From positions 3,132 to 67,131 of the forward strand of contig PWZL01000102.1 of assembly GCA_003567475.1 (NCBI GenBank): a stretch of 64,000 nt of DNA, written 5' to 3'. The position numbers and the translations under genes were made by a program. Of this stretch, positions 12,021 to 48,138 are shown piece by piece (positions within the stretch are counted from its first letter, which is position 1; each line of letters begins with the position of its first letter). Source of the DNA: Gammaproteobacteria bacterium (GTDB taxonomy: Bacteria > Pseudomonadota > Gammaproteobacteria > Steroidobacterales > PWYM01). The notes below the pieces were generated by a model. That model made no database searches. It worked only from the letters and a program-made list of their open reading frames with translations, and was not told the DNA's origin.

Positions 12021-12025
12021 GGGGG

Positions 12026-14044: not shown

Positions 14045-14878
14045 TCAGGGCTGGCGGCGGAAGCGGCTGAAGTCGGGCTTGCGCTTCTCGACGTAGGCAT
14101 TGCGTCCTTCCTGACCTTCCTCGGTCATGTAGAACAGCATGGTGGCATTGCCGGCGAGCTCCTGCAGGCCCGCCTGGCCGTCACAGTCGGCGTTCAGGGC
14201 GGCCTTCAGGCAGCGAAGGGCCATGGGTGAGTTGGCCAGGATCTCCTGGCACCAACGCACGGTCTCGGCCTCAAGGCGATCCAGGGGCACGACGGTGTTC
14301 ACCAGGCCCATGTCCAGCGCCTGTTGCGCGTCATACTGACGGCAGAGAAACCAGATCTCACGAGCTTTCTTCTGGCCGACGATGCGTGCCATGTAGCTCG
14401 CGCCATAGCCCCCGTCAAAGGAGCCGACGCGCGGACCGGTCTGGCCGAACCGGGCGTTCTCGGCGGCGATGGTGAGATCGCACATCAGGTGCAGCACGTG
14501 GCCACCGCCGATGGCATAGCCGGCCACCATGGCGATGACCGGCTTCGGGCAGGTGCGGATCTGGCGCTGGAAATCGAGCACGTTCAGGCGCATCACGTCG
14601 CCGTCGTCCCGATAGCCCGCGTCACCGCGGATACGCTGATCACCACCGGAGCAGAAGGCGAGCTCACCCTCCCCGGTGAGAATCACCACGCCGATGTCCG
14701 GATCTTCGCGGGCATCGGCCAGTGCCGCGATCATCTCGCGAACCGTCAGCGGCCGGAACGCATTGCGCACCGCCGGTCGGTTGATGGTGATCCGGGCGAT
14801 CCCCTGGGCGCCGTCTTCGCCCTTATCGTAGCGGATGTCATGGTAGTCGCCGGCGCTGCTCCAGCCGTAATCGCTCAT
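14045..14878 (-). CDS. menB: 1,4-Dihydroxy-2-naphthoyl-CoA synthase
   Basis: Crotonase fold with [27 protein letters not shown] and [17 protein letters not shown] overlap with the menH stop. Confidence 0.95.
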
Positions 14879-15678
14879 GTGCCCTGATGCCGTCCCTGTG
14901 AGAAAAACGCCTGCAGGCAGGCGGCGACCGCCGCGCCCTGCTCCAGGTGGACATTATGCCCGGCACCAGGAATCACGCGCACCTCCAGCCCGGCTCGACG
15001 CGCAGCCATCTGTGTCGCGATCTCGCGGAACTTGGCATCGTGTTCACCGACGATCGCGGCCGCGGGCAGAGACAGCGACGACAGCGCCGACCACAACGAA
15101 GGCTGGCTGCCGGTCCCCATCCCCCGTAGCGAGGCGGCCAGCCCTGCTGCCGATTGACGCTGTCGACGCGCCAGCAGTGCGGCGAACCCGGAGTGACTGC
15201 GCAGGCTCTGAAACAGCGGCTGCGCGTACCAGTCCGTGACGAACGCCGGCGTGCCCTCGGCCTCCAGGCGGACGGCCAAGGCCTCGTCACGTTGCCGCCG
15301 GGACGCCCGCGCGCAGTCATCGGCCAGCCCGGGCGAGGCGGACTCCAATGCCACCGCCTGGAAACGCTCCGGATAATGCACCGCCAGGTACAGCGCCAGC
15401 CGCCCACCCATGGAATAGCCGTACAGCAATGCAGGACCCCGGACGCGGTCCGCCAGCCACGCCACCAGCATCGATGCACACCCGGCCATGGTGAAGGCTT
15501 CAGCCGGCAGCTGGCTCTGGCCGTGGCCAGGCAGGTCCGGGGCCAGCAGATGGAAACGCTCAGCCAGTGCGGGCATCAGGCCCGCAAAATCCTCGCCAGT
15601 GCCAAGAAACCCATGCAGACAGACCAGCGGCGGCCGTGCCGGATCGCCCGCCGTTCGCAAGTGGAATCCCGTCCTCAT
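14875..15678 (-). CDS. menH: SHCHC synthase (alpha/beta hydrolase)
   Basis: [14 protein letters not shown] and nucleophile elbow [10 protein letters not shown]. Positioned between menD and menB. Confidence 0.8.
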
Positions 15679-15688
15679 CTATCGCTCG

Positions 15689-17476
15689 TCATGCCCCGGG
15701 CGCGGCATCACAGCCCACCGCGGCGGCACAGTGCGCCAGCAGTTCGCGATGACGGTGCAGATTGGCGGTCCGGTCGCTGCGCACTTCGATCACCGTGGAG
15801 GCCTCCGACGCCAGCGCCTCGGCCAGCGCGGCGCGGAACGCCGCGCGGGTGGCCGGCGCGCTGCAGGCGAGGCCGAAACCGCGGGCAAGCTCGGCCAGCG
15901 CCAACCCGTGCGGCGTGCCGAAACAGCGCTCGAAGGGGTCGCCGATGTCGGCGACCGGCAGGAAGGAGAAGATGCCCCCGCCATCGTTGTTCAGCAGCAC
16001 CACGGTCACCGCAGGCCGCTGCCGGACCAGCAGGGCCAGGGCGTTGAGATCGTGCAGGAAGGCGAGATCACCGCAGACCAGCACCACCCGGCGTCCGCTG
16101 CCGGTGGCGACCCCGCAGGCCGTGGCCAGGGTGCCGTCGATCCCGCTCGCGCCGCGATTGCTGTAGACCGGGACGCAGGCACCGTCCGCGCCAGCGAACA
16201 TGTCCATGTCGCGGACGGGCATGCTCGCAGCGAGACACAAGACAGCATCCGCGGGCAGACCGCGCGAAACCAGCCGGCAGGCCGCGGGTTCATCAAGCGC
16301 TCCCGGCCCGTCCAGCGCCGCCGCCACGGCCGACCCCAGCCGCGCATCGGCGGCCAGCAGGCGGTGGTGCCAGGCCGAGATCTTCACGGCCGGCGAAGCG
16401 GGCCGTGGCGAAGCGTCGGTCGCCGACGCAGGCACCAGCGCTGCGGCCAGCGTGGCCACCGAGACCTGGAGACGAAGCGTGACGCGGTGCGCGGGGTCGA
16501 GGCGCCGGGGATCATCGGCGACCCGCAGCAGCGGCACGCGCCAGGTCGCGATTCGGCCCAGCAGCCGTTTCGAGACCAGTTCGCCCCCCAGGTGCAGGAT
16601 CGCATCCGGGGTCTCGAGCCCCTCGGCATCGGCCGCGAGCAGCAGGTCGTAGTGGCGCAGCCATGACGCCTTCACCCGGCTGGCCCGCAGACCGGAGGTG
16701 ATGTCGGCACACACCGGCCAGCCGAGCCCAGCGGCCAGCTGTTCGGCGGCCACGCGCTCGGCGTCGTCGCGCAGCCGACCGATGACCATGAGACCGCGCT
16801 GCACCCCCTCGAGCGCCTGCCGGAACGCCTGCAGCGCGTCCGCGGAAAGCGCATGCGCCGGTGGCTGGTAGTCGGTATAGGGCTTGTCTGGTGTCGGCCA
16901 GAGCGGCGGCGGCGTGGCCGTGGGCGCCCCGGCCGCGATCAGCGGTTCCCGGAACGGCACGTTGATCTGGACGGGACCCGGCAGGGGATGGCGGCCACAA
17001 TAGACGGCCCGGTCCAGCGTGGTCAGCAGCGCCTCCGCCGGATAGTCCTCGGCGGGGACCGGCAGGTCGACACTGAAGCGGGCGTGGCTGCCGAACAGTC
17101 CCACCTGGTCGATGGTCTGATTGGCGCCGGTGTCGCGGAGCTCGGGCGGGCGGTCCGCAGTGAGCAGCAGCAGCGGGACACCAGCCATCGCGGCCTCGAC
17201 GACCGCCGGGTACAGATTGGCGACTGCACTGCCGGAGGTACAGATCACCGCCACGGTGGCGCCGCTGCCGCGGGCCAGCCCGAGCGCATGGAACGCCAGG
17301 GCGCGCTCGTCGAAGTGCACCGTACAGGCCAGCGCGGGATGGCCGGCAGCGGCGAGGGTCAGGGGTGTCGAACGCGATCCGGGGGCAAGACAGACGTGGC
17401 GAACACCGAGCCGGACCAGTTCTTCAATGATCAGGACGGCCCAGCGGCCGTTCAGCGCTGCCGTGGCCGCACTCAT
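15689..17476 (-). CDS. menD: SEPHCHC synthase (ThDP-dependent)
   Basis: N-terminus NGRWAVLIIEELVRLGVRHVCLAPGSRSTPL. ThDP motif GDLAFLHDLNALALL...VVLLNNDGGGIF. ATGA overlap with the menF stop. Confidence 0.95.
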   Translation of the reverse strand: MSAATAALNGRWAVLIIEELVRLGVRHVCLAPGSRSTPLTLAAAGHPALACTVHFDERALAFHALGLARGSGATVAVICTSGSAVANLYPAVVEAAMAGVPLLLLTADRPPELRDTGANQTIDQVGLFGSHARFSVDLPVPAEDYPAEALLTTLDRAVYCGRHPLPGPVQINVPFREPLIAAGAPTATPPPLWPTPDKPYTDYQPPAHALSADALQAFRQALEGVQRGLMVIGRLRDDAERVAAEQLAAGLGWPVCADITSGLRASRVKASWLRHYDLLLAADAEGLETPDAILHLGGELVSKRLLGRIATWRVPLLRVADDPRRLDPAHRVTLRLQVSVATLAAALVPASATDASPRPASPAVKISAWHHRLLAADARLGSAVAAALDGPGALDEPAACRLVSRGLPADAVLCLAASMPVRDMDMFAGADGACVPVYSNRGASGIDGTLATACGVATGSGRRVVLVCGDLAFLHDLNALALLVRQRPAVTVVLLNNDGGGIFSFLPVADIGDPFERCFGTPHGLALAELARGFGLACSAPATRAAFRAALAEALASEASTVIEVRSDRTANLHRHRELLAHCAAAVGCDAAPGA

Positions 17477-18876
17477 TCATCGGTCCAGGCGGCGCGCAGG
17501 CTGACCATCTTGCTCTCGAGCTCCCGCCATTCCATCGCGGCATCCGAGCCCTGGACGATCCCGGCACCGACGTACAGCGCGAGCTCGCGGTCATGCAGCA
17601 GACCGGAGCGGATGCCCACGGCGAACTCACTCTCCTCGGCGCCGACGTAACCGACCGGCCCGGCATACCAGCCACGATCGAAGGGCTCCAGAGCGGCGAT
17701 CCGGCGCAGGGCCTGAGGCGGTGGATCGCCGGCCACCGCCGGCGTGGGATGCAGACTGTCGAGCAGCGCGGCATCGCTCACACCGGGCTCCAGATCCCCG
17801 CTGAGGCCCACGTGGAGATGCTGGACATGCGGCAGGCCCAGGACCTGCAGCGCCTTGGCCTCGGTCGCGCCCGCCGTGAGCGGGGCAAGCCGGTTCTCGA
17901 GGTAACGCACCACACAGGCATGCTCGCGCCCATCCTTGCCGCAGTTGAGCAGTTCCGCCCGCAGCGCGTCATCCTCCGCCCCGGTGGCGCCGCGGGCGCG
18001 GGTGCCCGCCAGGGCCTCGGTCCCGAAGTGACGGCCACGGCGGTGAAACAACCGCTCGGGGCTCGCCCCGAGAAAAGCCGTGTCGCCACCCGGATTGAAG
18101 TAGAAGTGGAAACATGGACCGCTGCGCCGGGTCAGCGCGGCCAGCAGCGCAAGCGCCTCCGGGCGCTCGGCGAACACCATCTCGGTCCGCCGGGCCAGCA
18201 CCAGCTTGCACAGCTCGCCCCGGCCCAGGCTGTCCGTGACCTCGCGGACCAGGCTGGTCCATACACCACGCGAGGGAAGATCCTGATGTCGCGCCGGAGG
18301 GGCGACCGCCGGCAGCGGCTCGATGTCGCAGACCAGCCCGCCGAGCTCCTCGAGCAGCCGGGCGCGCGAATCGCGTCCAGGGAAGGCATTGCAGGCGAAG
18401 CGGATGCGTCCGCCCTCGCGCACCAGTTCGAACCGCGGCAGCGCCAGCCAGCCGAGCCCGAAAGGTTGCCACTCCGCCGAGACCTCGGCCGCGGCATCGA
18501 ACCGGAAGCCGCCGTAGTACCGGACCCCAGGCGAAGCATCCTGCAGACGCGAGGCCGTGCGCTCCACCAGCTCGGCGGGCGTCATGCCCGGGACCAGCGC
18601 CAGCCGATCGGCCAGCCCGACGCCCGCCACGCCCCGCCGCTGCTCGCGATCCGCCCAGTAGAGTCGCGGCAGCGTGTGCTGGGCAGCCAGCCAGGGCATG
18701 GGCTCGAGCCCATCCGCAGCCACCTCGAGACGCAGCATGGGGCCAAGCCGCGAAGCCGCATACTGCTCGCCGAACGCCTCGGCGATGCGCGCGGCCATGC
18801 GTGCATAGACCCGCATGGCCAACCGCGCCATGCGGTCGGCCGACTGCCCCGGCAGACGGTCAGTTCTGGCGTTCAC
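17473..18876 (-). CDS. menF: Isochorismate synthase
   Basis: Chorismate-binding C-terminus LHPTPAVAGDPP...EPFDRGWYAGPVGYV...EFAVGIRSGL. First gene of the men operon. Confidence 0.9.
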   Translation of the reverse strand: MNARTDRLPGQSADRMARLAMRVYARMAARIAEAFGEQYAASRLGPMLRLEVAADGLEPMPWLAAQHTLPRLYWADREQRRGVAGVGLADRLALVPGMTPAELVERTASRLQDASPGVRYYGGFRFDAAAEVSAEWQPFGLGWLALPRFELVREGGRIRFACNAFPGRDSRARLLEELGGLVCDIEPLPAVAPPARHQDLPSRGVWTSLVREVTDSLGRGELCKLVLARRTEMVFAERPEALALLAALTRRSGPCFHFYFNPGGDTAFLGASPERLFHRRGRHFGTEALAGTRARGATGAEDDALRAELLNCGKDGREHACVVRYLENRLAPLTAGATEAKALQVLGLPHVQHLHVGLSGDLEPGVSDAALLDSLHPTPAVAGDPPPQALRRIAALEPFDRGWYAGPVGYVGAEESEFAVGIRSGLLHDRELALYVGAGIVQGSDAAMEWRELESKMVSLRAAWTDE

Positions 18877-24552: not shown

Positions 24553-24696
24553 AAAACCGCAGATTGCAAGGGGCGCGTGCGAAAAATCCTGCCGCGGGTC
24601 CGGGCGTGGCCCGCGAGCCGCGCCGGCCGGGTGCTACAATCCGCGCCGGTCGCGCAGGCGCGCGACACCGGCTCACGCTCTGCAAGGAAAGACGAC

Positions 24697-25674
24697 ATGA
24701 AGAAACCCGTCCGAGTCGCCATTACCGGCGCCGCCGGCCAGATCGGCTACCAGCTGGCCTTCCGCATCGCCTCCGGTCAGATGCTGGGCGCCGACCAGCC
24801 GGTGATCCTGCAGCTCCTCGAGATCACGCCGGCCTTGGGTGCCCTGTCCGGCGTCGCCATGGAACTCGATGACTGCGCCTTCCCGACCCTGGCCGGCCTG
24901 GTGCTCTCCGACGACCCCGAGATCGCGTTCGCGGATGCCGACGTCGCGCTGCTGGTCGGTGCCAAGCCGCGCGGACCGGGCATGGAACGCAAAGACCTGC
25001 TGACCGAGAACGCCAAGATCTTCTCCGCGCAGGGCAAGGCCCTGAACGCCAAGGCCAGCCGCGACGTGCGGGTGCTGGTGGTCGGCAACCCGGCCAACAC
25101 CAACGCCCTGATCGCCCGCGAGAATGCGCCGGATATCGATCCGCGGAACTTCACTGCCATGACACGGCTCGACCACAACCGCGCGCTGGCTCAGCTGGCA
25201 GCGAAGACCGGCAGTCATGCGCAGGACATCCGCCGGTTGACGATCTGGGGCAACCACTCGGCCACGCAGTACCCCGACATCTCGCAGGCCACCGTGGCCG
25301 GCAAGCCGGCCGCCAGCCTGGTCGCCGAGGAGTGGTACCGCAACGAGTTCATCCCCACCGTGCAGCAGCGCGGCGCCGCCATCATCAAGGCGCGCGGCGC
25401 CTCATCGGCGGCTTCCGCGGCCTCGGCGGCGATCGACCATATCCATGATTGGGTGCTTGGCACGCCGGACGGCGACTGGGTGAGCATGGCGGTGGCCTCC
25501 GACGGCAGCTACGGGATTGGCGAGGGCGTGGTCTACTCCTATCCGGTGATCTGCCGGGACGGCGGCTACGAGATCGTGCAGGGCCTGGAGGTCGACGAGT
25601 TCAGCCGCACCAAACTGGATGCCACCGACGCCGAGCTCCGCGAGGAACGCGAGGGCGTCGCCCACCTGCTGTAA
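24697..25674 (+). CDS. mdh: Malate dehydrogenase
   Basis: [33 protein letters not shown]. Start at the internal Met (24697). Confidence 0.95.
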
Positions 25675-25682
25675 GCCCACCA

Positions 25683-25717
25683 CCGCCTGCAGACACCCCA
25701 AGGTGTCCTGCAGGCGG
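25683..25717 (+). terminator. Strong hairpin after mdh
   Basis: CCGCCTGCAGACACC (25683-25697), loop CCAA, GGTGTCCTGCAGGCGG (25702-25717): 15 bp with one bulged C. No clear T-run. Confidence 0.5.
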
Positions 25718-25784
25718 TCAGTCGGGATGCTTGACCCGCGGTCCTGGCGTACACTCACGCCAACTGAATTCCGCGGGGAATCCC

Positions 25785-28310
25785 ATGCTTGACAGTCTGT
25801 TCTGGCTGTTCACCTTCATTGTCGTCGCAACCACCCTGGCGTACCGCCGGGTTGACCTGCGCTCCGCGACCATCGTCCTCGGCGCGACCCTGCTGGCCTA
25901 CACCGTGTTCGGTTCGGGCGCTGTGCTCTGGATCCTGGCGCTCTGGGTGCTGTTCGGCGGAATGGTCTTTCTCAACTTCGAGGATCAGCGGCGCGAGCAC
26001 GTGACGCGGCGGCTGCTGGAGATCTACCGGCGCATGCTGCCGCAGATGTCGCGCACCGAGCGCGAGGCGCTGGAGGCCGGCACGGTCTGGTGGGAAGGCG
26101 AACTGTTCTCGGGTAACCCGCGTTGGGAAAAACTGGTCGACCAGCCGGCCGCTCGCCTCACCGAGGAGGAACAGGCCTTCATCGATGGACCGGTAGAAGA
26201 GGTCTGCCGCATGGTCGACGACTGGCAGGTCACTCACGAGCTCGCCGATCTGCCGAAAGAGGTCTGGGACTACCTCATCGACAAGCGCTTCTTCGCGATG
26301 ATCATTCCGAAGAAATACGGCGGACTCGAATTCTCTGCGCTGGCCAACGCCATGGTGCTCGCCAAACTCGCCAGCCGCAGCATGGTGCTTGGCTCGACGG
26401 TTGGGGTGCCGAACTCGCTCGGTCCCGCGGAACTGCTGCTGCACTATGGGACCGATGCCCAGAAAGACCGCTATCTGCCGCGCCTGGCGAGCGGTGAGGA
26501 AATTCCCTGTTTCGCGCTGACCTCCGTGCGCGTCGGCTCGGACGCCACCGCGATCACCGACACCGGGGTTGTCTGCCGTGGCGACTGGCAGGGCGAGGAC
26601 ACCATCGGCATCCGGCTGAACTGGGACAAGCGCTACATCACGCTGGCACCGGTGGCCACGGTCATCGGGCTGGCCTTCAAGCTCTACGATCCCGATCACC
26701 TGATTGGCGACAGCGACGAATACGGCATCACCGCGGCCCTCGTGCCGGCGAAGACGCCGGGGGTCACCATCGGTCGCCGGCACTTCCCCCTCAATGTCCC
26801 GTTTCAAAATGGCCCGACTCAGGGCCATGACGTGTTCGTCCCTCTCGATGCCATCATCGGCGGGCCGAAGATGGCCGGCCAGGGCTGGAAGATGCTGGTC
26901 GAGCAGTTGTCCGTGGGCCGCGCCATCACGCTGCCGGCTTCAGCCATGGGTGGGGCCCGCGCCGCGGTCTACGCCTCGGGAGCCTATTCGCGCATCCGCC
27001 GCCAGTTCGGCCTGCCGGTCGGCAAGTTCCACGGCGTGGGCGAGGCGATCGCCAGAATGGCGGGGATGACCTACATCATGAACGCCAACACCGAGGTCAC
27101 CGCCGGCGCCATCGACCGTGGTGAGAAACCCGCCGTGCCCTCGGCGATCCTCAAATACCACAACACTGAAATGGGCCGCCTGGTCGCTAACGACGCCATG
27201 GACGTCCACGGTGGCAAGGGCATCATGATGGGGCCGAAAAACTATCTGGGACGGGGCTACCAGGGGGTGCCGATCGGGATCACCGTCGAGGGTGCGAATA
27301 TCCTGACGCGCTGTCTGATCATCTTTGGCCAGGGCGCGATCCGCTGCCACCCCTGGGTATTCGACGAGATGCAGGCAGCCGCCAATCCCGACACGACGCA
27401 GGGCCTGGTGGACTTCGATCGCGCCTTGTTCGGCCACATCGGCTACGCCATCAGCAACGCCGCACGCTCGCTGGTGATGGCCCTGACCGTCGCACGCTTC
27501 GCTGATGTTCCGGCGCACGGCCCCGTGCGCCGTTACTACCAGCACATCACCCGATACAGTGCCTCCTTCGCGCTCACCGCCGATGCCGCAATGCTGACCC
27601 TCGGCGGCGCGTTGAAACGCAAGGAACTCCTCTCCGCGCGTCTCGGCGACGTGCTGGCGAGCATCTACATGGCCTCCATGGTGCTCAAGCACTATGACAA
27701 TCAGGGCCGGCGCGCGGCCGATCTGCCGCTGGTTGAGTGGGCCTGTCGCCACCTGCTCTACCGGGCGCAGGAACAGCTGCACGGCTTCCTGCGTAACTTC
27801 CCGGTGCGCTGGGTCGCCTGGATCCTGCGGGTGCTGGTGTTCCCGCGCGGACGGACCTATTCCTCCCCGGCCGACGAGCTGGGTCAGGACATCGTCGAGC
27901 TGATGATCAGCCCGAGCGAGACGCGCGAGCGCCTGTGCTCGGGCATCTACAGCACGGTCGAGCCCGGCAATCCGCTCGGCCTGCTGCAGGAAGCCCTCGA
28001 ATTGGCCTATTCGGTCCGCGATCTCGAACGCAAGGTCTTCGATGCGATCCGCGACGGTCGGATCACCGCCGAGGAGGTGCCCTCGCAGATCGACCAGGCC
28101 GAACGTCTCGGCGTGTTGACGGCCGATGAGGCGGCGCGGGTCCGCGAGTTCGACCACAAGGTGCTGGAACTGATCGGGGTAGACGACTTCCCGCACGACG
28201 CGCTCGGCACCCGTCCCGCCAGTCGGCCGGGACCGCCACATGCAGCGGATCAACCCTCAGCGGTCGAGCGTGCCGCCGCACGACAGGGCGCCGCGGGCAG
28301 CCTGCACTGA
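25785..28310 (+). CDS. fadE: Large membrane-anchored acyl-CoA dehydrogenase
   Basis: N-terminal TM region plus MLPQMSRTEREALEAGTVWWEGELFSGNPRW, which parallels E. coli FadE [23 protein letters not shown]. About 840 aa. The track ORF start at 25449 lies inside mdh and was rejected. Confidence 0.9.
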   Translation: MLDSLFWLFTFIVVATTLAYRRVDLRSATIVLGATLLAYTVFGSGAVLWILALWVLFGGMVFLNFEDQRREHVTRRLLEIYRRMLPQMSRTEREALEAGTVWWEGELFSGNPRWEKLVDQPAARLTEEEQAFIDGPVEEVCRMVDDWQVTHELADLPKEVWDYLIDKRFFAMIIPKKYGGLEFSALANAMVLAKLASRSMVLGSTVGVPNSLGPAELLLHYGTDAQKDRYLPRLASGEEIPCFALTSVRVGSDATAITDTGVVCRGDWQGEDTIGIRLNWDKRYITLAPVATVIGLAFKLYDPDHLIGDSDEYGITAALVPAKTPGVTIGRRHFPLNVPFQNGPTQGHDVFVPLDAIIGGPKMAGQGWKMLVEQLSVGRAITLPASAMGGARAAVYASGAYSRIRRQFGLPVGKFHGVGEAIARMAGMTYIMNANTEVTAGAIDRGEKPAVPSAILKYHNTEMGRLVANDAMDVHGGKGIMMGPKNYLGRGYQGVPIGITVEGANILTRCLIIFGQGAIRCHPWVFDEMQAAANPDTTQGLVDFDRALFGHIGYAISNAARSLVMALTVARFADVPAHGPVRRYYQHITRYSASFALTADAAMLTLGGALKRKELLSARLGDVLASIYMASMVLKHYDNQGRRAADLPLVEWACRHLLYRAQEQLHGFLRNFPVRWVAWILRVLVFPRGRTYSSPADELGQDIVELMISPSETRERLCSGIYSTVEPGNPLGLLQEALELAYSVRDLERKVFDAIRDGRITAEEVPSQIDQAERLGVLTADEAARVREFDHKVLELIGVDDFPHDALGTRPASRPGPPHAADQPSAVERAAARQGAAGSLH

Positions 28311-28356
28311 GGCTGCCATCGTGGTCGCGTCCGAGGCCCAGACCCCGGCGCCGGCG

Positions 28357-29652
28357 ATGCCGCTGCAACCCGTGCTTGAAGTCGAGCTGGCATCGACCAC
28401 GGCACCGATGGACGAGGACAGCCTTCAAGACTACCTGGATACCCTGCTGGCCTGTCCCGAGGTCCTGTCCATCCGGCGCTATCGCCTCGTCGGCCCGCCG
28501 TCCGAGGACACAGCCGACGGCGTAGCCGGCGATGCCCTCGGCGGCGCCATGGACGGCGAGTCGGCCGCCGCCACGGTCGGGCAGTCCCTGCTGCGCCTGG
28601 TGCTGACCGATCAGGCACTCTCGGACAACAGCGCGCTGGCGCGCGCGCTGATCGAGGCCGAACACACCCTGAGGCGGCATCGGGGCGACGGGGTCACGGT
28701 CAAGACGCGCTGGCTGTCAGGCGATGCACCGCCGCGCACCGGTGCACCGCGACACTGTCGTAACTGCGAGGCCCCGATCACCGGACAGTACTGCTGGCAG
28801 TGCGGCCAGCGGGTGCGCGAGCGCATGATCACCATGGCCGAGCTGGTCGGTGGCCTGACCACCGATCTGTTCCAGCTCGAATCACGGCTGTGGCGCAGCG
28901 TTCGCCCGTTGCTCCTCAGCCCCGGTCGACTGACCGCCGACTATCTGGCGGGCCGCCAGGCACGCCATATGCCGCCGTTTCGCATGTATCTGGTGCTGTC
29001 ACTGGCGTTTTTCCTGCTGGTGACCCTCGGCTACAGCGGCTCGCCCGTGCGTATGAACGTGGATGACACGCTCGTGGCCGAAACCCTCCGTGGTCAACCG
29101 TGGGGCGACCGCCAGGACCGGCGCGCGTTCGCTGACGAGAACTGCCGCTTCGAGGACGAGACACTCATCGGACCGGACTGGCTGCTGGCCTACCTCACCC
29201 CTGAGCTGCTGCGAGAGCGCTGTCTGCGCATCGTCGAACGCCCGGAGGAGTACGGACGACGGGTCCTCGACGCCCTCCCCGTCGCGCTGCTGCTCGCGCT
29301 GCCTGCCTTGGCACTGGTCATGCAGGTCCTGAATGCGTTCAGTCGCCGCTACTACGTCGAACACCTGCTGTTCTTCGTGCACTACCACAGCTTCCTGTTC
29401 CTGTTCGTCATGCTGGTCCTCGGGATGTCTCGCCTGCTGGGACTGCTGTCGATCCCGGCCTGGGTGAGCGGTGTCGGGCTGTTCGCGGCCTGGCTCTATG
29501 CCCTCTATTACCCTTACCGCGCGATGCGGCGAGTCTATGGAAACGGACGGGCCCTGGCGCTGGTCAAATACGTGCTGCTGCTGATGACCTACCTGCTGCT
29601 GCTGAGCCTGATGACGGTCGGCACATTGAGCTATACGGCGCTGAGTTTATGA
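28357..29652 (+). CDS. DUF3667 zinc-ribbon membrane protein with an extra ~150-aa N-terminal region
   Basis: CRNCEAPITGQYCWQCGQ zinc ribbon followed by ...LLSPGRLTADYLAGRQARHMPPFRMYLVLSLAFF and several TM helices. Start uncertain: 28240 would overlap fadE. Confidence 0.65.
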   Translation: MPLQPVLEVELASTTAPMDEDSLQDYLDTLLACPEVLSIRRYRLVGPPSEDTADGVAGDALGGAMDGESAAATVGQSLLRLVLTDQALSDNSALARALIEAEHTLRRHRGDGVTVKTRWLSGDAPPRTGAPRHCRNCEAPITGQYCWQCGQRVRERMITMAELVGGLTTDLFQLESRLWRSVRPLLLSPGRLTADYLAGRQARHMPPFRMYLVLSLAFFLLVTLGYSGSPVRMNVDDTLVAETLRGQPWGDRQDRRAFADENCRFEDETLIGPDWLLAYLTPELLRERCLRIVERPEEYGRRVLDALPVALLLALPALALVMQVLNAFSRRYYVEHLLFFVHYHSFLFLFVMLVLGMSRLLGLLSIPAWVSGVGLFAAWLYALYYPYRAMRRVYGNGRALALVKYVLLLMTYLLLLSLMTVGTLSYTALSL

Positions 29653-30803
29653 ACGGCGAGCGCTGCATCCTGCACGTCGACATGGATGCCTTCTATGCGA
29701 GTATCGAGCAACGCGATGATCCCGAACTCCGCGGCCGCCCGGTCGCCGTCGGCGGCACGGGCCAACGAGGCGTCGTGGCGGCCGCCAGCTACGAAGCCAG
29801 ACGCTACGGTGTGCGCTCGGCGATGCCGGTGGGCGAAGCGCTCCGGCGCTGCCCCGAACTCGTCCGGGTGCCGCCGCGCATGGCGCTCTATCGACAGGTG
29901 TCGGTGCAGATTTTTGAGATCTTTTCGCGCTATACCCCCGAGATCGAGGGGCTGTCACTCGACGAAGCCTTTCTGGACGTGACCGCAAGCCTCGCACTGT
30001 TCGGCTCGCCGCTGATGTTGGCCAAGCGACTCAAGACCGACATTCACCGGGAGACGGGATTGACCGCCTCGGTGGGGATCGCACCCAACAAACTGGTGGC
30101 CAAGATCGCCTCGGACCTGGAGAAACCTGATGGTCTGTGCGAAGTGACACGGCAGCGGCTTCACGCGGTGCTCGATCCGCTGCCGGTTGCCGTGTTGCCC
30201 GGATTGGGACCTCGCAGTCAACCCGGGCTGGCGCGGCTGGGCATTCGTACCCTCGGACAGTTGCGCAGCGCCGCTGCCGATCGCCTTCGCGCGGTCCTCG
30301 GTCGACAGACGGACGCACTGCAACGACGTGCCGCCGGCGAAGATGACCGACCTGTCGTGGTACACCGCGAAGAGAAGTCCATCAGCAGCGAAGAGACCTT
30401 CGATGAGGACCTGCCCCTCGGGCCGGCGCTGGAACGCCAGCTTGCCCGCCTGGCCGACCGCACCGCCAGCCGTCTCCGGAGCAAGCGCCTGCTTGCCGGC
30501 ACGGTCGTGCTCAAGATCCGCCGCGCCGACTTCACCACGAGCACCCGGCAACAGGGTCTAGGGGTACCCAGTTGCGAAACCGCCGTGATCAGTGCCACAG
30601 CACGAGCGCTGCTCAAGGCATGGGGTGCGGCGCAGCCTGCGGTTCGCGTTCGCCTGGTCGGCGTCGGCGTCACCGGACTCGTCGCCGCCAGTCAGCTCGG
30701 GCTCTTCGGCGAGAGCTCGAGCGGGCAGGTCGACGCAGCGACCGACAGCATCCGCGAGCGCTTTGGCACAGCGGCGCTGACCCGGGCCCGGACACTCCGG
30801 TGA
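29649..30803 (+). CDS. dinB: DNA polymerase IV
   Basis: ILHVDMDAFYASIEQRDDPELRGRPVAVGG and SLDEAFLDVT. The ATG at 29649 forms an ATGA overlap with the upstream stop. Confidence 0.95.
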   Translation: MNGERCILHVDMDAFYASIEQRDDPELRGRPVAVGGTGQRGVVAAASYEARRYGVRSAMPVGEALRRCPELVRVPPRMALYRQVSVQIFEIFSRYTPEIEGLSLDEAFLDVTASLALFGSPLMLAKRLKTDIHRETGLTASVGIAPNKLVAKIASDLEKPDGLCEVTRQRLHAVLDPLPVAVLPGLGPRSQPGLARLGIRTLGQLRSAAADRLRAVLGRQTDALQRRAAGEDDRPVVVHREEKSISSEETFDEDLPLGPALERQLARLADRTASRLRSKRLLAGTVVLKIRRADFTTSTRQQGLGVPSCETAVISATARALLKAWGAAQPAVRVRLVGVGVTGLVAASQLGLFGESSSGQVDAATDSIRERFGTAALTRARTLR

Positions 30804-41013: not shown

Positions 41014-41904
41014 TCAGCTGCGAATGCCCCGGCCCTTGGTCAGCAGCCACATGTTCGCCAGAAACAGCGCGACGAGCAGGCCCAGGATGAGTGCGTAAGC
41101 CACCCCGATGGGAATGTCCGACACCCCCAGTACGCCGTAGCGGAACGCGTTGACCATGTACAGGATCGGGTTGGCCATCGCTGCAGCCTGCCAGGGGGGT
41201 GCCAACAGGGAGATCGAGAAGAACACCCCGCCCAGGTAAGTCAGCGGCGTGAGTACGAAGGTCGGCACGATGGAGATGTCGTCGAAGGTCTTGGCGAAGA
41301 TCGCGTTGAGCAGGCCGGCCAGCGAGAACACCGCGGCCACCAGCACCACCACGGAGAGCGTGATCAGCGGATGCTCGACGCTGATACGCGTAAACAGCAA
41401 CGCCACCACCGTCACCAGCACGCCGACGGCCAGCCCGCGGAAAATCCCGCCAATCATGTAGCCGACCACGATGGTCGCTGTGGACAACGGCGAGACCAGC
41501 AGTTCCTCGAGATACAGCTGCAGCTTGGCACTGAAGAACGACGAGACCACGTTCGAGAACGAATTGGTGATCACCGCCATCATGATCAGGCCCGGCGCGA
41601 TATAGGTGATGTAGGGCAGGCCGTCCATCTCGCCGATGCGCCGGCCGATCAGGCTGCCGAAAATCACGAAATACAGCGTCATGGTGATCGCTGGCGGCAC
41701 GATGGTCTGCACCCAGATGCGCGTCACGCGCCGGATCTCCCGGCGCATGATGGTCCGCAGGCCGACCAGGTTGACCGCCAGCAGACTCTGCATCGGTGCC
41801 GGCCCGGTCACGCACCCGAACTCGTCGGTCCGCGCGGACTGCTGCGCGGCCTCGATCTCCGACTGCGGCGCGTCGCTGTCGAGCTCTCCGCGGCCGACCG
41901 TCAT
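41014..41904 (-). CDS. ABC-2 transporter permease (YadH-like)
   Basis: LRTIMRREIRRVTRIWVQTIVPP and six helices. The ATG at 41904 is ATGA-coupled to the ATPase stop. Alternative start at 41793. Confidence 0.8.
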   Translation of the reverse strand: MTVGRGELDSDAPQSEIEAAQQSARTDEFGCVTGPAPMQSLLAVNLVGLRTIMRREIRRVTRIWVQTIVPPAITMTLYFVIFGSLIGRRIGEMDGLPYITYIAPGLIMMAVITNSFSNVVSSFFSAKLQLYLEELLVSPLSTATIVVGYMIGGIFRGLAVGVLVTVVALLFTRISVEHPLITLSVVVLVAAVFSLAGLLNAIFAKTFDDISIVPTFVLTPLTYLGGVFFSISLLAPPWQAAAMANPILYMVNAFRYGVLGVSDIPIGVAYALILGLLVALFLANMWLLTKGRGIRS

Positions 41905-42833
41905 GGACGGGTCTCAGAGGCGCCAGCGCGCTCGGTCAGGCGCAGGAAGAGCTCTTCCAGACGATTCGCCTTGTTACGTATGCTGTGGACGATCATGCCT
42001 TGCTCGCTCAGCAGGGCGAACAGCCGGTTGACGTTCTGCTCGCGCGAGACTTCGACCTCAATCTCATGTTCGTTACGCAGCCGCACCGGGTAGCCGTCCA
42101 GCACCGGCGCGGCCTCGACCGTCTGTTCGAGTGACAGGATAAAGGTCTCGTACTGCAGCTTGCGCAGGACGCGGGACATGCGATCGTGTTCCACGATAGT
42201 GCCGTGGTCGATGATGGCCACGTTCCGACAGAGGCTCTCGGCCTCTTCGAGATAGTGGGTGGTCAGGATGATGGTCACCCCGGCATCGTTGATCGCCCGC
42301 ATGAACTCCCACATGGAGCGGCGGATCTCGATGTCCACCCCCGCGGTGGGCTCATCGAGAATCAGCAGCCGCGGCTCATGCATCAGGGCCCGGGCGATCA
42401 TCAGCCGTCGCTTCATGCCCCCGGACAGGTTCCTGGCGATGTCATGGCGACGGTCCCAGAGATGCAGCGCCTTGAGATATCTCTCAGCCCGCTGGCGCGC
42501 AAGCCGGGGCCGCACCCCGTAATACCCCGCCTGGTGAATGACGATGTCGATCAGCTTCTCGAACATCGCCAGATTGACTTCCTGCGGCACCACGCCGATA
42601 CAGGCCTTGGCGGCCTCGCGCTGGCGATCCATGTCGCGATCGAACACGACCACCCTGCCGGCGGTCTTGTTGACCAGCGAGGTGATGATGCCAATGGTGG
42701 TGGTCTTGCCTGCGCCATTGGGACCGAGCAGCGCGAAGAAGTCCCCCTCCTCGACGACCAGATCGATGCCGCGCAGGGCCTGCACGCCATTCGGGTAGGT
42801 CTTGCGCAGGTGTTCTAGTCGCAATGCGTCCAT
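41901..42833 (-). CDS. ABC transporter ATP-binding protein (YadG-like)
   Basis: Walker A GPNGAGKTT, signature LSGGMKRR, Walker B LLILDEPTAG. Start at the internal Met (42833). Confidence 0.9.
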   Translation of the reverse strand: MDALRLEHLRKTYPNGVQALRGIDLVVEEGDFFALLGPNGAGKTTTIGIITSLVNKTAGRVVVFDRDMDRQREAAKACIGVVPQEVNLAMFEKLIDIVIHQAGYYGVRPRLARQRAERYLKALHLWDRRHDIARNLSGGMKRRLMIARALMHEPRLLILDEPTAGVDIEIRRSMWEFMRAINDAGVTIILTTHYLEEAESLCRNVAIIDHGTIVEHDRMSRVLRKLQYETFILSLEQTVEAAPVLDGYPVRLRNEHEIEVEVSREQNVNRLFALLSEQGMIVHSIRNKANRLEELFLRLTERAGASETRP

Positions 42834-42940: not shown

Positions 42941-43528
42941 TCAGACATGCTGTTCGGCACTCGCGAGGTACACGGCGGTGCAGAGGGTCAGCCGTAAACC
43001 CTCCCGGTCTCCGCTGGCGGCGCAGTCCGCGATCCGCTCCCAGAACAGGCCGCGACGGAGAAAGCGCAGGCGCAGGGCCTCGGCGGCGGGTACCGCCAGC
43101 GCCGGCAGCGCGGAAAGCGGCAACTCGGCCAGCCAGGCCAGTTCCCGCGGCGTGAGCCCGAAGCCGAGACGCGCCCAGTCCGGCGCCGTGCGCAGCATAT
43201 GCCAGGCGGTGAGCAGTGCACTGACCGTGAAGGCCATCCGCGCATCCTGAGTTTCCACCGCCAGCCAGGCGTCCGCAGCCGCCCGATCACCGACGCCACC
43301 AGGCTCCAGGCGAAGCCGGAACAGCGCGACCGGTGCATTTGCCAGCTGCTCCCGCGCGCAGGGACCCAGCGCTTTCAGGGCGCGGCCTGGAGCGCCCTCC
43401 AGACCAATCCGACGGAACGCCGGCCGGGCATCCCCGGACTGCGCCAACGGACCGATGATCCGCAGGAAAAGCCGGTTGAGCTCGGCGAACTGAACCATGG
43501 GTGACGGGTCCGACAGGGTCCCTCGCAT
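42941..43528 (-). CDS. Hypothetical protein with two tandem FlhD-like segments (tentative)
   Basis: AGGAGG Shine-Dalgarno sequence 5 nt before the ATG at 43528. Segment 1 is FAELNRLFLRII..AFRRIGLEGAPGRALKALGPCAREQLANAPVALFRLRL. Segment 2 is WARLGFGLTPRELAWLAELPLSALPALAVPAAEALRLRF. Both resemble E. coli FlhD [37 protein letters not shown] by eye. Confidence 0.5.
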   Translation of the reverse strand: MRGTLSDPSPMVQFAELNRLFLRIIGPLAQSGDARPAFRRIGLEGAPGRALKALGPCAREQLANAPVALFRLRLEPGGVGDRAAADAWLAVETQDARMAFTVSALLTAWHMLRTAPDWARLGFGLTPRELAWLAELPLSALPALAVPAAEALRLRFLRRGLFWERIADCAASGDREGLRLTLCTAVYLASAEQHV

Positions 43529-43661
43529 AACGCCTCCTGTCCGTATAGCGGTCGTTTTTTTGACCTTATCCGGCAAATATGGTTATTTTTTTTCATCCAG
43601 GGGGTCTAGTAGAGTATCTATGCTTTTTGGCTATAAGTAGAAGCGCGAGCGGGGAGGGCCC
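43529..43661. promoter_or_regulatory. AT-rich divergent control region
   Basis: GTCGTTTTTTTGACC, GGTTATTTTTTTTCATCC and CTATAAGTAG within an otherwise GC-rich window. Lies between two divergent start codons, each with a good Shine-Dalgarno sequence. Confidence 0.45.
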
Positions 43662-44276
43662 ATGCGCAGTACCGACGACCGCTACCGGAGTGACCAGGCA
43701 CGACATGATCTGGCATTGCGCCTGATCGCCCACGAGGCGCGCACGGGCACGATCCGCCAACTTACCGGCCTGTCCGACGATCGCATCCGCCGCCTCTTTG
43801 GCAGCTATTTCAAGCACCAGCCAGGCAATGCCGTGCGCCGACGCCGCGGCCGCACACCCTCACAGGTCTCGATGTTCCTGAAGACGCCCCGCCATCGCCG
43901 CCACGCGGCGTCGCTGGCCGCCGCCTTCGTGGCCGGGGGCTTGTTCGATCCGGAAACGCGCGCGGTCTGTGGCGACTGCAAACTGGATACGGGGGAACGG
44001 CTGTGCCTGGCCTATGAGCGTTATCTCGCGCTGCATGGCGGCAAGGACGGCGCGCTGTTGACCATCGAGTGGGCCTGGGCGCTGCTCGGCAGCCTCCAGG
44101 CGGGGGACGAGCTCGCGCTGGACGTCTGCGAACAGTGCGATGTGCATTATGTGCGTGACCTGCTCAGCATCGAGGCACAGCAGTGCCCGAGCTGCCTGGT
44201 GATGCCGAATGGCCGCTGCCGGAAATCACGGGATCACGCCCACACCGGGCACACCCTCGGCGCGGGCTTCGCCTGA
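43662..44276 (+). CDS. FlhC-family transcriptional regulator-like protein (Cys4 zinc site conserved)
   Basis: Collinear by eye with E. coli FlhC. ARHDLALRLIAHEARTGTIRQLTGLSDDRIRRLF against [42 protein letters not shown] against KAYRLYL. TIEWAWALL against LTRAWTLV. CEQC-x15-CPSC matches the FlhC zinc ligands. GGGGAGGG Shine-Dalgarno sequence. Confidence 0.75.
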   Translation: MRSTDDRYRSDQARHDLALRLIAHEARTGTIRQLTGLSDDRIRRLFGSYFKHQPGNAVRRRRGRTPSQVSMFLKTPRHRRHAASLAAAFVAGGLFDPETRAVCGDCKLDTGERLCLAYERYLALHGGKDGALLTIEWAWALLGSLQAGDELALDVCEQCDVHYVRDLLSIEAQQCPSCLVMPNGRCRKSRDHAHTGHTLGAGFA

Positions 44277-44295
44277 CCCGACCCCGGCTCAGGCG

Positions 44296-44321
44296 CTGCC
44301 AGCAAACGGCGGGCGTTTTTT
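44296..44321 (+). terminator. Possible terminator after the FlhC-like gene
   Basis: Weak stem around GCC..AAACG GCGGG CGTTT, followed by TTTTTT (44316-44321). Confidence 0.25.
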
Positions 44322-44364: not shown

Positions 44365-44865
44365 ATGAGCACCGCTGCCCCCCCCCGTTTCGCCACGGCA
44401 GACCTCTACGACGAGTTTGCCGAAGAACTCGAGGTCGCCGATCCCCTGTTCCGCCACTTCGGCGGCCGTCGCCGGTTCTGCGGACCGATCCGCACGGTCT
44501 CGACCCTCGAGGACAATACCCAGGTGCGCCGCCTGCTGGAGACGCCGGGTGAGGGACATGTGCTGGTCGTGGACGGTGTCGGTTCGCTGCGGGTTGCGCT
44601 GGTTGGCGACCAGCTGGGTCGACTTGCGATCGACAACCACTGGGCCGGCCTGCTGGTGCACGGCTGTGTGCGCGACAGCGCCGCGCTCGCGGAGATGCCC
44701 ATCGGGGTGCTGGCACTGGCCACCAACCCCGCCCGGAGCCGCAAGCAGAATCAAGGCCAGGTCGACGTGCCGCTGCGCTTTGCGGGGGCCAGCTTTGTGC
44801 CCGGCCACTGGCTGTACGCCGACGACGATGGCGTGGTGCTCTGCGAACGCCGGCTCGTCGACTGA
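44365..44865 (+). CDS. rraA: RraA-family protein (RNase E regulator / HMG-CHA aldolase fold)
   Basis: ATADLYDEF, GEGHVLVVDGVGSLRVALVGDQL, GLLVHGCVRDS. Confidence 0.9.
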   Translation: MSTAAPPRFATADLYDEFAEELEVADPLFRHFGGRRRFCGPIRTVSTLEDNTQVRRLLETPGEGHVLVVDGVGSLRVALVGDQLGRLAIDNHWAGLLVHGCVRDSAALAEMPIGVLALATNPARSRKQNQGQVDVPLRFAGASFVPGHWLYADDDGVVLCERRLVD

Positions 44866-45802
44866 GATGGCCTACGGCGCCGAAGTCGCCAACCACTTTG
44901 GTGGACCGTGGCTCGACCGCGCCAGTCGGCTGCGCCAGGACCCTGCCTGGCTGAGCGCCGCGATCGGCGCGCAGGACACCCTGTTCGTGCCCGTGCACGC
45001 CGAACGCTGCCTGATCGCAAGCCTCGAGGCGCCGCGGGCGCGATTCCTGACGCGCGCCCAGCTCACGGAACTCGACCCGGCGATCGACCCGGCAGACGCG
45101 GTGTTCCTGGGCCTGCACGAGGCGCGCGCCGTATTCGCCCTCGCGTTGGCGCGGACTCCTGACCCACTGGACGGCGAATTCGTCGACCTCTGGCAGGTCG
45201 GCCAGCGCCTTGCGCCCGCCGAGGCGGCCATTCTGGCCTATGCCAAGGCGATGGTGGGCTGGCGCAGCCGCCATCGGTACTGCAGCGAAACCGGCGCGCC
45301 GCTGGCCGCGACGACCGGCGGACATGTCCTGGCTGCACCCGACGGTCGCAGACTGTTTCCGCGGGTGGATCCGGCGATCATCGTGCTGGTCAGCGACGGT
45401 GACCGCTGTCTGCTCGGCCGCCAGGCGAAATGGCCACCCGGCCGCTACTCGACCATCGCCGGTTTCGTCGAGCCCGGTGAGAGCCTCGAGGACGCGGTCG
45501 CGCGCGAGGTCGAAGAGGAAACCGACGTGCGCATCCGCGACCCGCGCTATCACAGCTCCCAGCCGTGGCCGTTCCCCTCGTCGCTGATGCTGGGCTTCCA
45601 CGCCGAAGCCGCCACCACGGCGATTCATCTGAACGACGGCGAACTTGCCGATGCACGATGGTTCAGCCGCCAGGACATTGCCGATGGCGACGTCCGACTG
45701 CCGCCGGCACTGTCGATCTCCCGTCGCCTGATCGCCACCTGGTTCGACCGTTGGGACGGGCCATCGCTGACCACGGTGCTGGGCGCGCGCGCAGCCGGGT
45801 AG
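44866..45802 (+). CDS. nudC: NADH pyrophosphatase (Nudix)
   Basis: Nudix box GFVEPGESLEDAVAREVEEETDV and NudC signature SQPWPFPSS. The ATG lies immediately after the rraA stop. Confidence 0.85.
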
Positions 45803-45839: not shown

Positions 45840-47309
45840 GTGTTGAACCAACCGGTGGTCATTCCACTGTGGCTCGCGCTGATCTTCGGCGCAATTGCGC
45901 TGTGGCTGCTGGTGTCCCGGCTGCTGTTGCCGACGGCGCGCTGGTATTTTCGACGCCAGGCCAACCAGCTGATCGACAGCGTCAACCGCAGCCTGAATCT
46001 GCAGATCCCACCCCTGTCGCTGACCCGGCGCCAGGTGCTCATCGACCGGCTGGTCTACGATCCGCGAATTGCCCGCACGGTCGCAGAGCACTGTGAAACC
46101 ACCGGAGAACCCCGGAAGGTGGCGATGGACCGGGTCGAGCGGTACGCCCGCGAGATCGTCCCGGCCTTCAACGCCTACGTGTATTTCCGCTTTGGCGGCT
46201 GGCTGGCGCGAAAACTCGTGCGCGCGCTGTATCGCGTGCGGCTGGGATTTCTGGACGAGCAGGCCATCACCAGCGTCGGGGAGGATGCCAGCCTGGTGCT
46301 CGTCGTCAACCACCGCAGCAACATGGACTACGTGCTGGTCGCCTACCTGGCCATGACCCGTACAGTGCTGTCCTATGCAGTCGGCGAGTGGGCGCGGGTC
46401 TGGCCCCTGCAGCAGATCATCCGTTCCGTCGGCGCCTATTTCGTGCGCCGCGGCTCCGGCAATCCACTGTACCGGCGCGTGCTCGAACGCTATGTGCAGA
46501 TGGCCGTGGAAGGCGGCGTCACGCAGGTGGTCTTCCCGGAGGGTGGCCTGAGTCGAGATGGGGCCCTGCGCGAACCGCGGGTCGGACTCATCGACTACAT
46601 GCTGCGCGATTTCGATCCACGGGGACAACGCGACATCGTCTTCCTGCCGATCGCGATCAATTATGACCGGGTGCTCGAGGATCGCACGCTGATCGGCGAA
46701 CTCCAGCCCGGCGCGCCACGGCGCAGCGGCTGGGCTGCCATTCGCAAGGCGAGCGCTTTCCTGCTCCACAACCTGCGGCTCGGACTGCGCAAACGCTGGT
46801 ATCGCTACGGCTATGCGTGTGCAAACTTCGGCCGGCCGGTCTCGCTGCGCGCCTACCTGGCGGAGCGAGACTGGGACCCTCGCGACTTGCAGGCCCCGGG
46901 CCGGGCGACGCGACTGGTCGAACTCGCCGAGCATCTCATGCGCGAGGTGGGCATGCTGATGCCCGTATTGCCGGTCAGCCTGATTGCCACGCTGTTCGAC
47001 GAACATCCCGACGAAACTTTCAGCGTGGAGGAGATTCGGGCGGCCGCACGGGAGCGCCAGCAGACCCTGATGAGCCGCAACGCCCAAGTCTATCTACCCC
47101 GGCAAAGCGACGACTACGCCATCGATGTGGGCCTGCGGATGCTCCGGCTGCGGCGGATCGTGCTCGAAGACGCGGGCCATTACCATGCCAACCCGGAGGA
47201 GGCGAAACTGATCGCCTACTACGCCAACGCCATCTCGCACCTGCGCGACGCGCAGCCCGAGCCCGAGACGCCCGCGCGCACGGTCGATCAGCATCGCGTC
47301 GCGGGCTGA
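45840..47309 (+). CDS. PlsB/PlsC-superfamily glycerolipid acyltransferase
   Basis: HX4D motif VVNHRSNMDYVL, FPEGGLSRDG motif, N-terminal TM helix. GTG start. Confidence 0.75.
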   Translation: MLNQPVVIPLWLALIFGAIALWLLVSRLLLPTARWYFRRQANQLIDSVNRSLNLQIPPLSLTRRQVLIDRLVYDPRIARTVAEHCETTGEPRKVAMDRVERYAREIVPAFNAYVYFRFGGWLARKLVRALYRVRLGFLDEQAITSVGEDASLVLVVNHRSNMDYVLVAYLAMTRTVLSYAVGEWARVWPLQQIIRSVGAYFVRRGSGNPLYRRVLERYVQMAVEGGVTQVVFPEGGLSRDGALREPRVGLIDYMLRDFDPRGQRDIVFLPIAINYDRVLEDRTLIGELQPGAPRRSGWAAIRKASAFLLHNLRLGLRKRWYRYGYACANFGRPVSLRAYLAERDWDPRDLQAPGRATRLVELAEHLMREVGMLMPVLPVSLIATLFDEHPDETFSVEEIRAAARERQQTLMSRNAQVYLPRQSDDYAIDVGLRMLRLRRIVLEDAGHYHANPEEAKLIAYYANAISHLRDAQPEPETPARTVDQHRVAG

Positions 47310-47355: not shown

Positions 47356-48138
47356 ATGTGCCTGATCGCTTTCGCCTGGCAATGCCATCCCCGTTTTCCG
47401 CTGGTCCTCGCCGCCAATCGCGACGAATTCCACTCGCGACCCACCGAGGCGGTGCACCGCTGGTCCGCACCGGCAGGTCTCGTCGCCGGACGCGACCTCG
47501 AGGCCGGCGGCACCTGGTTGGGCGCGGGTCCGGGCGGCCGGATCGCGGCACTGACCAACGTACGCGAACCGGCATCGGGTCGGTCCGCAGCCCCGCCTTC
47601 GCGCGGTGAACTGCCGGTCGCGTTTCTCGCGGACAGCCGCTCACCCGCCGCCTTCGTCCATGACCTGGCTGACACGGCGGCCACGTACCGGGGCTTCAAT
47701 CTGTTGCTGGTCACCGGCGATGCGCTGCTCCTGACATCCAATCGCGGCACAGGACCGGTGGCGCCCGGCCCGGGCATCCATGCCGTCAGCAATGCCCCGC
47801 CGGGGGTCGACTGGCCCAAGACGCGCCGGGCCCGTCAGATCCTGGGCCATGGCCTGGCGGACAATGGCGATACGCTGGAGGGCCTGATCGAGGCGGCTTT
47901 CGCACTGCTCGCCGACCCGGCGCCAGCGGACGATCGCGAGCTGCCCGAGACCGGACTGACCGCTGCGCGCGAGCGCCTGCTGTCCGCCATTTTCGTCATC
48001 GGGAGCAACTACGGGACGCGCTGTTCCACGGTCCTGGTGGTCGACCGCGAGGGCACGCTGCACTGGCATGAACGGCGGTTCGGCCCCGACGCCCGACCCG
48101 CGGGCAGCAGTCGGCTGCAACTGGCCTACGGGCGCTGA
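47356..48138 (+). CDS. NRDE-family protein (DUF833 / TANGO2-like)
   Basis: MCLIAFAW N-terminal Cys and ANRDEF motif. Confidence 0.8.
   Translation: MCLIAFAWQCHPRFPLVLAANRDEFHSRPTEAVHRWSAPAGLVAGRDLEAGGTWLGAGPGGRIAALTNVREPASGRSAAPPSRGELPVAFLADSRSPAAFVHDLADTAATYRGFNLLLVTGDALLLTSNRGTGPVAPGPGIHAVSNAPPGVDWPKTRRARQILGHGLADNGDTLEGLIEAAFALLADPAPADDRELPETGLTAARERLLSAIFVIGSNYGTRCSTVLVVDREGTLHWHERRFGPDARPAGSSRLQLAYGR

Follow-up and report, generated by a model that had tools for sequence, protein, structure and literature searches.

A Divergent FlhDC-Family Gene Pair with a Predicted Tandem FlhD-like Subunit in Woeseiaceae and Related Gammaproteobacteria

Introduction

The literature cited here gives regulators of the FlhDC type two roles, namely the control of flagella in enteric bacteria and beta-proteobacteria and the control of the transfer of resistance plasmids and integrative and conjugative elements (ICEs). 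In the classical complex, FlhD4C2 (PDB 2AVU, 8J56, 1G8E), FlhD is a separate dimerising chain of 116 amino acids, and the genes constitute an operon, flhD followed by flhC, beside motility genes. The present study concerns a pair of divergent genes encoding an FlhC-like protein and a double-length FlhD-like protein. The pair is located in a 64,000-bp stretch of gammaproteobacterial DNA (assembly GCA_003567475.1, contig PWZL01000102.1, positions 3,132 to 67,131 of the forward strand; GTDB lineage Steroidobacterales, PWYM01), referred to below in its full length as the window.

The non-flagellar relatives of FlhDC described in the literature cited here have their genes on plasmids, ICEs or genomic islands (PMC4542580, PMC4605294, PMC7423338). 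They include AcaCD from IncA/C plasmids, SetCD from SXT/R391 ICEs and SgaCD from SGI1, whose genes form operons on conjugative or mobilisable elements and activate transfer and excision genes. AcaC and AcaD co-purify and function as class II activators (PMC4207636, PMC4542580); for FlhDC, SetCD and AcaCD, class II activation by binding across the -35 region has been described (PMC4542580). A further system, BisDC of ICEclc, is an FlhDC-named heteromeric activator with autoregulation (PMC7423338).

Results

The FlhD-like subunit and its two modules

The FlhC-like subunit of 204 amino acids is encoded on the plus strand at 43662..44276, in the open reading frame (ORF) delimited by the first-pass annotation, and the FlhD-like subunit of 195 amino acids is encoded on the minus strand at 42941..43528 (stop codon included), with its ATG at 43528. 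The minus-strand ORF was listed in a form of 211 amino acids beginning with TTG at 43576. This longer form is unlikely: the 195-residue form was chosen by the gene callers in six assemblies, all homologues of the FlhD-like protein start at the position of its ATG, and this ATG is preceded by AGGAGG. The intergenic region of 133 bp (43529..43661) contains both ribosome-binding sites and is AT-rich, with a GC content of 47% versus 62-72% in the window. Presumably, both promoters lie within it.

Sequence profiles and structural models together indicate that the 195-residue protein is composed of two FlhD-like modules fused in one chain, as had been proposed in the first-pass annotation. Taken as a single sequence, the protein matched nothing in Pfam, NCBIfam or PDB sequence searches, and neither did a profile of 11 members; FlhD was reached only with a profile of 146 members. 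An exhaustive profile search yielded 342 cluster representatives of ~190-240 amino acids matching over the full length. The N-terminal half of the 146-member profile matched solved FlhD structures (8j56_A, E-value 3.6e-10; 5hxg_B, 2e-5; 1g8e_A, 1e-4). Individually, 51 of the 146 family members matched Pfam FlhD, and the match lay in the N-terminal half of one member inspected and in the C-terminal half of another.

The profiles of the two halves were compared with each other by hhalign, which gave a probability of 84.7%, an E-value of 6.7e-6 and a score of 29.4, while control comparisons of half versus half (the reversed profile and 20 column-shuffled profiles) scored 7-15 with probabilities of at most 4.5%. 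The E. coli FlhD, represented by what we take to be its sequence, which is consistent with the PDB alignments of the 146-member profile, aligned with the N-terminal half at 83.9% and with the C-terminal half at 78.9% probability. In the latter alignment MFRLGINEE...HFRF was paired without gaps with ARLGFGLTPRE...RLRF, reproducing the gap-free correspondence of the second copy with FlhD that had been noticed from the sequence.

The AlphaFold2 (AF2) model of the whole protein had a mean predicted local distance difference test score (pLDDT) of 87.6 and a predicted template modelling score (pTM) of 0.85. In it, the two halves repeat one order of elements, with a long helix, three shorter ones and a short strand, and the top PDB fold matches of the whole model were FlhD chains. 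The N-terminal module, supported by the family profile against solved FlhD and by hhalign, comprises residues 1-89 (43262..43528, minus strand). The C-terminal module, supported by the AF2 model, the fold search and hhalign, comprises residues 90-195 (42944..43261, minus strand) and carries two extra C-terminal helices. Modelled alone by AF2, the C-terminal half reached a pLDDT of 93.1, and its ten best PDB matches were all FlhD chains (probability 0.97-1.00, template modelling score 0.45-0.74), after which the probability fell to ~0.1. The Foldseek E-values of the FlhD-like models were modest (0.1-2), as expected for a helical domain of ~100 residues, with probabilities of 0.9-1.0 and an unambiguous ranking. 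The high pTM suggests that the two halves may pack against each other like the FlhD dimer.

Ten of the 146 members of the FlhD-like family also weakly matched Pfam DUF2857 (best E-value 3.3e-5), for example the protein encoded at L010:7249-7842. This domain was reported in BisC of ICEclc, a protein called FlhC-like by Phyre2 (PMC7423338). The two proteins of the window gave no DUF2857 match. It may be that DUF2857 is related to the FlhD fold.

The FlhC-like subunit

Residues 15-190 of the 204-residue protein corresponded collinearly to positions 13-170 of the 173 positions of the Pfam FlhC profile. A phmmer search with this protein against the PDB gave no match. At least 148 homologues were found, and a profile of 120 of them matched the solved FlhC chains 8j56_C (E-value 1.9e-11) and 2avu_E (E-value 5e-7, almost entire length). 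The collinearity with FlhC claimed in the first-pass annotation is thus upheld, and so are the four zinc-ligand cysteines of the CEQC-x15-CPSC segment (44127..44195, plus strand), which is aligned to the cysteine region of 8j56_C: among the 120 homologues C156 and C159 are invariant, and C175 and C178 are conserved in at least 90%. The N-terminal HEART-TIR-TGLSDDRIR segment and the RRRG-SP motif of the family are nearly invariant. Judging by these comparisons, the homology to FlhC over the full length is real, as is the predicted four-cysteine zinc site.

Comparison with AcaCD and other described systems

The sequences of AcaC and AcaD were taken from the IncC plasmid pAR060302. AcaD, with 202 amino acids (L093:14425-15033) and a reported mass of 22.8 kDa (PMC4207636), is a long D subunit like the 195-residue protein. 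It aligned by hhalign with the profile of the FlhD-like family at 81% probability (E-value 1.2e-5) over 163 columns across both halves, and each half of AcaD separately matched an FlhD-like module in a search with the family hidden Markov model (E-value of the whole protein 1.6e-7). Pfam FlhD was found in the C-terminal half of AcaD only (residues 106-179, 31.6 bits). AcaC aligned with the profile of the C subunit at 92.6% probability. The likeness to AcaC and AcaD was visible only in such profile comparisons. It appears from them that AcaD itself looks like a tandem FlhD. The tandem arrangement had been put forward as a new architecture, and this is an overstatement, since AcaD already shows a two-module layout.

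With AcaCD, SetCD and SgaCD, the pair described here shares the constitution of a two-subunit FlhDC-family factor with a C subunit of ~185-205 amino acids carrying four cysteines and a D subunit of ~200 amino acids. In contrast to them, it is divergently arranged, chromosomal and flanked by housekeeping genes, and tblastn found no plasmid relatives. With FlhD4C2 it shares the FlhC fold with the zinc cysteines and, in either half of the D subunit, the fold of FlhD, whereas the two modules are fused in 195 residues and the genes are separated by a divergent 133-bp spacer outside any motility context. BisDC is more distant, as BisD is ParB-like and has no FlhD domain, and the system is borne by an ICE. 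The pair is a member of the FlhDC family if the latter is taken broadly, with AcaCD and SetCD included. It is not an equivalog of the flagellar FlhDC, because it has neither the operon order nor a single FlhD of ~116 residues and scores below the curated cut-offs, and it is not a mobile-element activator of the AcaCD/SetCD kind, because it is not located on a plasmid, ICE or island.

In the literature, neither AcaD as a tandem FlhD nor a chromosomal FlhDC-like pair of Woeseiaceae was found described, which, as the coverage was incomplete, is weak evidence of absence. Compared with the cited literature, the chromosomal context, the divergent order and the palindrome CCATNTATGG conserved in the shared promoter region of the orthologues look new. 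The long D subunit belongs to the already known type of AcaCD, though it was not described there as a duplication.

Distribution and synteny

One genome per species was scanned, and at least 581 genomes contained a relative; synteny was counted in the best 80. These are nearly all metagenome-assembled genomes (MAGs) labelled Woeseiaceae, Woeseia or Gammaproteobacteria. The divergent order noted in the window recurs in 79 of the 80 loci, where the C-like gene is preceded by a D-like ORF pointing away from it; in the one exception the contig stops ~130 bp upstream of the C-like gene. The genes adjoining the pair are also conserved and include an ABC ATPase (77/80), a permease (70/80), nudC (71/80) and TANGO2 (73/80). 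PlsB-like and RraA genes adjoin the pair in five and six loci, respectively, all of them closest relatives, and of the downstream genes only nudC and TANGO2 stay beside the pair in distant ones. This neighbourhood is kept where the D subunit is only ~31% identical. The median gap is 46 bp between the D-like stop codon and the start of the ABC ATPase gene, and 23 bp between nudC and TANGO2, which fits two divergent operons.

A search of 72,556 plasmids by tblastn with both proteins gave no match, no relative was found in viral contigs, and the PHROGs database gave no match either. The pair is not on a mobile element; it is chromosomal and apparently vertically inherited.

Several related loci deserve separate mention. 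The gap between the FlhC-like gene and nudC is bimodal, either ~5-150 bp or ~400-650 bp. The longer gaps point to the insertion of a small gene in one clade; in the lineage of the window this gene is rraA. In the genome GCA_026225535.1 (L097:6509-7369, minus strand) the gene calling missed an FlhC-like ORF scoring 254 bits, apparently since it had over-extended the adjacent D-like ORF to 286 amino acids across this one. A distant relative, GCA_004138485.1 (L007:1-6258), contains genes of malate dehydrogenase, an FadE-type acyl-CoA dehydrogenase and DinB. These three genes are located on the same side of the pair as in the window (24577..30803), so that synteny extends well beyond the core module.

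The divergent promoter region

The 150 bp upstream of the C-like start were aligned across the loci and revealed strongly conserved AT-rich boxes. The palindrome CCATNTATGG, a pattern of 14 specified bases, occurs 68 times in 10.3 kb of orthologous spacers versus twice in 862 kb of flanking DNA, the search covering 6-13 kb per related genome. Its positions are fixed, at -67 in 36 loci and at -36 in nine loci; another clade has a pair of boxes at a distance of 20 bp. If the transcription start is predicted from the TATAT-rich -36 box of the Woeseiaceae consensus, the -67 box comes to lie ~40 bp upstream of it; this spacing would correspond to the geometry reported for class II activation by FlhDC, SetCD and AcaCD (PMC4542580).

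A promoter scan also gave one sigma-70-like match at 43560..43589 (plus strand), which was weakly above shuffled sequences and is not relied on.

Flanking genes in the window

The FlhD-like gene is followed on the same strand, after 107 bp, by a YadGH-type ABC exporter (41014..42833, minus strand) consisting of an ABC ATPase (41901..42833, minus strand) and an ABC-2 permease (41014..41904, minus strand). The permease matched NCBIfam PRK15066 with 380 bits, in agreement with the co-directional YadGH-like exporter of the first-pass annotation, and the exporter is a candidate co-transcribed target of the pair. On the other side, rraA (44365..44865), nudC (44867..45802), a PlsB-like acyltransferase gene (45840..47309) and TANGO2 (47356..48138) all lie on the plus strand, downstream of the FlhC-like gene and co-directional with it. 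A weak terminator-like hairpin with a T-run between the FlhC-like stop codon and rraA (44294..44312, plus strand) was no better than in shuffled sequences and was discarded.

The check covered the genes called up to 10 kb away from the pair in both directions and 20 long ORFs elsewhere in the window. No integrase, transfer or flagellar gene was found among them, the window contains no tRNA, and the GC content is flat along it. The housekeeping genes recognised include men genes and those of malate dehydrogenase, FadE, DinB, arginine biosynthesis, a two-component system, TamA/TamB, RraA, NudC, the PlsB-like acyltransferase and TANGO2; a FakA/DegV-like protein is also encoded near the pair. The housekeeping, non-mobile setting described earlier is therefore confirmed by the absence of integrase, tRNA and transfer genes, the flat GC content and the lack of plasmid and viral relatives. 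An integrative element or neighbouring transfer genes were looked for among the window ORFs checked and not found, and the relatives have the same housekeeping neighbours.

A putative menaquinone biosynthesis cluster at 9478..18876 seems ordinary. It comprises genes of an AMP-binding enzyme, an enolase-superfamily protein, an enoyl-CoA hydratase-type protein, an alpha/beta hydrolase, a TPP enzyme and a chorismate-binding enzyme.

Discussion

Homology, the duplication, synteny and the conservation of the box in the orthologues are established by the present analysis; that the subunits form a complex, that it binds DNA, which genes it controls and whether it activates or represses them is what we infer in proposing the following mechanism. 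The C subunit is of the FlhC fold and carries a predicted Cys4 zinc site. The D subunit unites two FlhD modules in one chain and would be a pseudo-dimer, so that two D and two C subunits (D2C2) would take the place of the classical FlhD4C2 hexamer. Indirect support for such a complex comes from the adjacency of the two genes in 79 of the 80 loci. As the D modules are fused, equal amounts of both gene products would suffice for D2C2, and the shared divergent promoter would supply equal expression of both genes. The long D subunit, common to the pair and AcaD, makes the pair one of the AcaCD/SetCD type rather than of the enteric FlhDC type. Bound to the palindromic CCATNTATGG boxes of the common promoter region, the complex would control two divergent transcription units, one formed by the FlhD-like gene and the YadGH-type exporter, the other by the FlhC-like gene with nudC, TANGO2 and their neighbours. 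Class II activation is probable, as with FlhDC, SetCD and AcaCD. On the whole, it seems rather probable that the pair encodes a heteromeric FlhDC-family transcription factor whose targets are its own divergent promoter and both adjoining operons.

Several observations weigh against this proposal. The matches of the FlhC-like protein to curated models are below their cut-offs, both for Pfam FlhC (E-value 1.9e-4, 21.7 bits; cut-off 27 bits) and for NCBIfam PRK12722 (E-value 5e-5, 23.1 bits; cut-off 216), and the protein is no FlhC equivalog. The window and its closest relatives keep only a degenerate box; in the window it is GGCAAATATGGT (43572..43583), a copy of CCATNTATGG with three mismatches to ACCATATATGGT. 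The palindrome pattern is not enriched in the 64-kb window, where four matches were found versus 4.85 expected. No box was found directly upstream of the ABC or nudC genes, and the control of these genes by the pair rests on their predicted membership in the operons. The conserved AT-rich boxes could also be promoter elements or the site of another factor. Finally, a distant divergent pair (L096:3107-4691) lies beside a CitMHS transporter and an M23 peptidase, with neither the ABC exporter nor nudC within the 6-kb contig; the pair itself is thus the constant core.

FlhDC, SetCD and AcaCD control many dispersed promoters (PMC4542580, PMC4207636), and the pair might likewise be a global regulator with its main targets elsewhere, for instance in envelope or lipid homeostasis, its own promoter being autoregulatory only and the neighbours being kept for other reasons. 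The PlsB-like, TamA/TamB, FakA/DegV-like and ABC-2 exporter genes nearby hint at an envelope theme, but the PlsB-like and RraA genes are neighbours only in the closest relatives, and the 6-13 kb searched per related genome provided no positive evidence of distant boxes. We regard this explanation as unlikely. A flagellar master regulator, that is, a divergent FlhDC activating class II flagellar operons elsewhere in the genome, is still less probable. Membership in the FlhDC family would suit such a role, and a master regulator need not adjoin its targets. The first-pass annotation had stated that flagellar context is absent, which can be maintained only for the window ORFs checked, as most sediment Woeseiaceae MAGs were reported to have complete flagellar assembly genes (PMC12175321). 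However, neither the window nor the gene tables obtained for related loci show a flagellar or chemotaxis gene next to the pair, and in the 80 loci surveyed by tblastn the housekeeping neighbours are the same throughout. The D subunit is of the double AcaD type and not of the 116-residue flagellar form, and the box is nearly confined to the promoter of the pair within the locus DNA searched. Besides, Gammaproteobacteria with polar flagella usually rely on FleQ/FlrA-type activators of sigma-54.

The AcaD layout of the D subunit and the location of the non-flagellar relatives described in the cited literature on plasmids, ICEs or islands (PMC4542580, PMC4605294, PMC7423338) might point to a domesticated remnant of an AcaCD/SetCD-type integrative or conjugative element, still sensing or controlling mobile elements. 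This explanation is very improbable in view of a neighbourhood that is the same in at least 77 of the 80 species-level genomes, even where the D subunit is only ~31% identical, a window with no integrase, tRNA, transfer gene or GC shift, and the lack of plasmid or viral relatives. Since synteny is conserved across hundreds of species, a recent mobile-element origin is unlikely; any transfer would have been ancient, the behaviour of the genes now being that of core genes.

Returning to the proposed local regulator, its broadest form would be an FlhDC-family regulator of the core genome whose FlhD pseudo-dimer is one chain. Vertically inherited in Woeseiaceae and related sediment Gammaproteobacteria, it would have no flagellar or DNA-transfer role and would control a conserved module of the exporter, nudC and TANGO2 via a palindromic operator. 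We put this forward tentatively, with doubt slightly outweighing confidence. If true, the family would have here its first branch that is chromosomal and tied neither to motility nor to mobile elements, and this branch would be a candidate stock from which the AcaCD/SetCD-type activators of plasmids and ICEs were recruited. The operator is testable and candidate targets are at hand, which makes the question open to experiment. The fused double FlhD offers a simple reading of the long AcaD-type D subunits, in which one chain replaces the FlhD dimer; the expected stoichiometry changes from 4:2 to 2:2, which may guide structural work on AcaCD and SetCD. Woeseiaceae are reported to be widespread in marine sediments, and a third, chromosomal branch in this family would broaden the known uses of the two-subunit factor.

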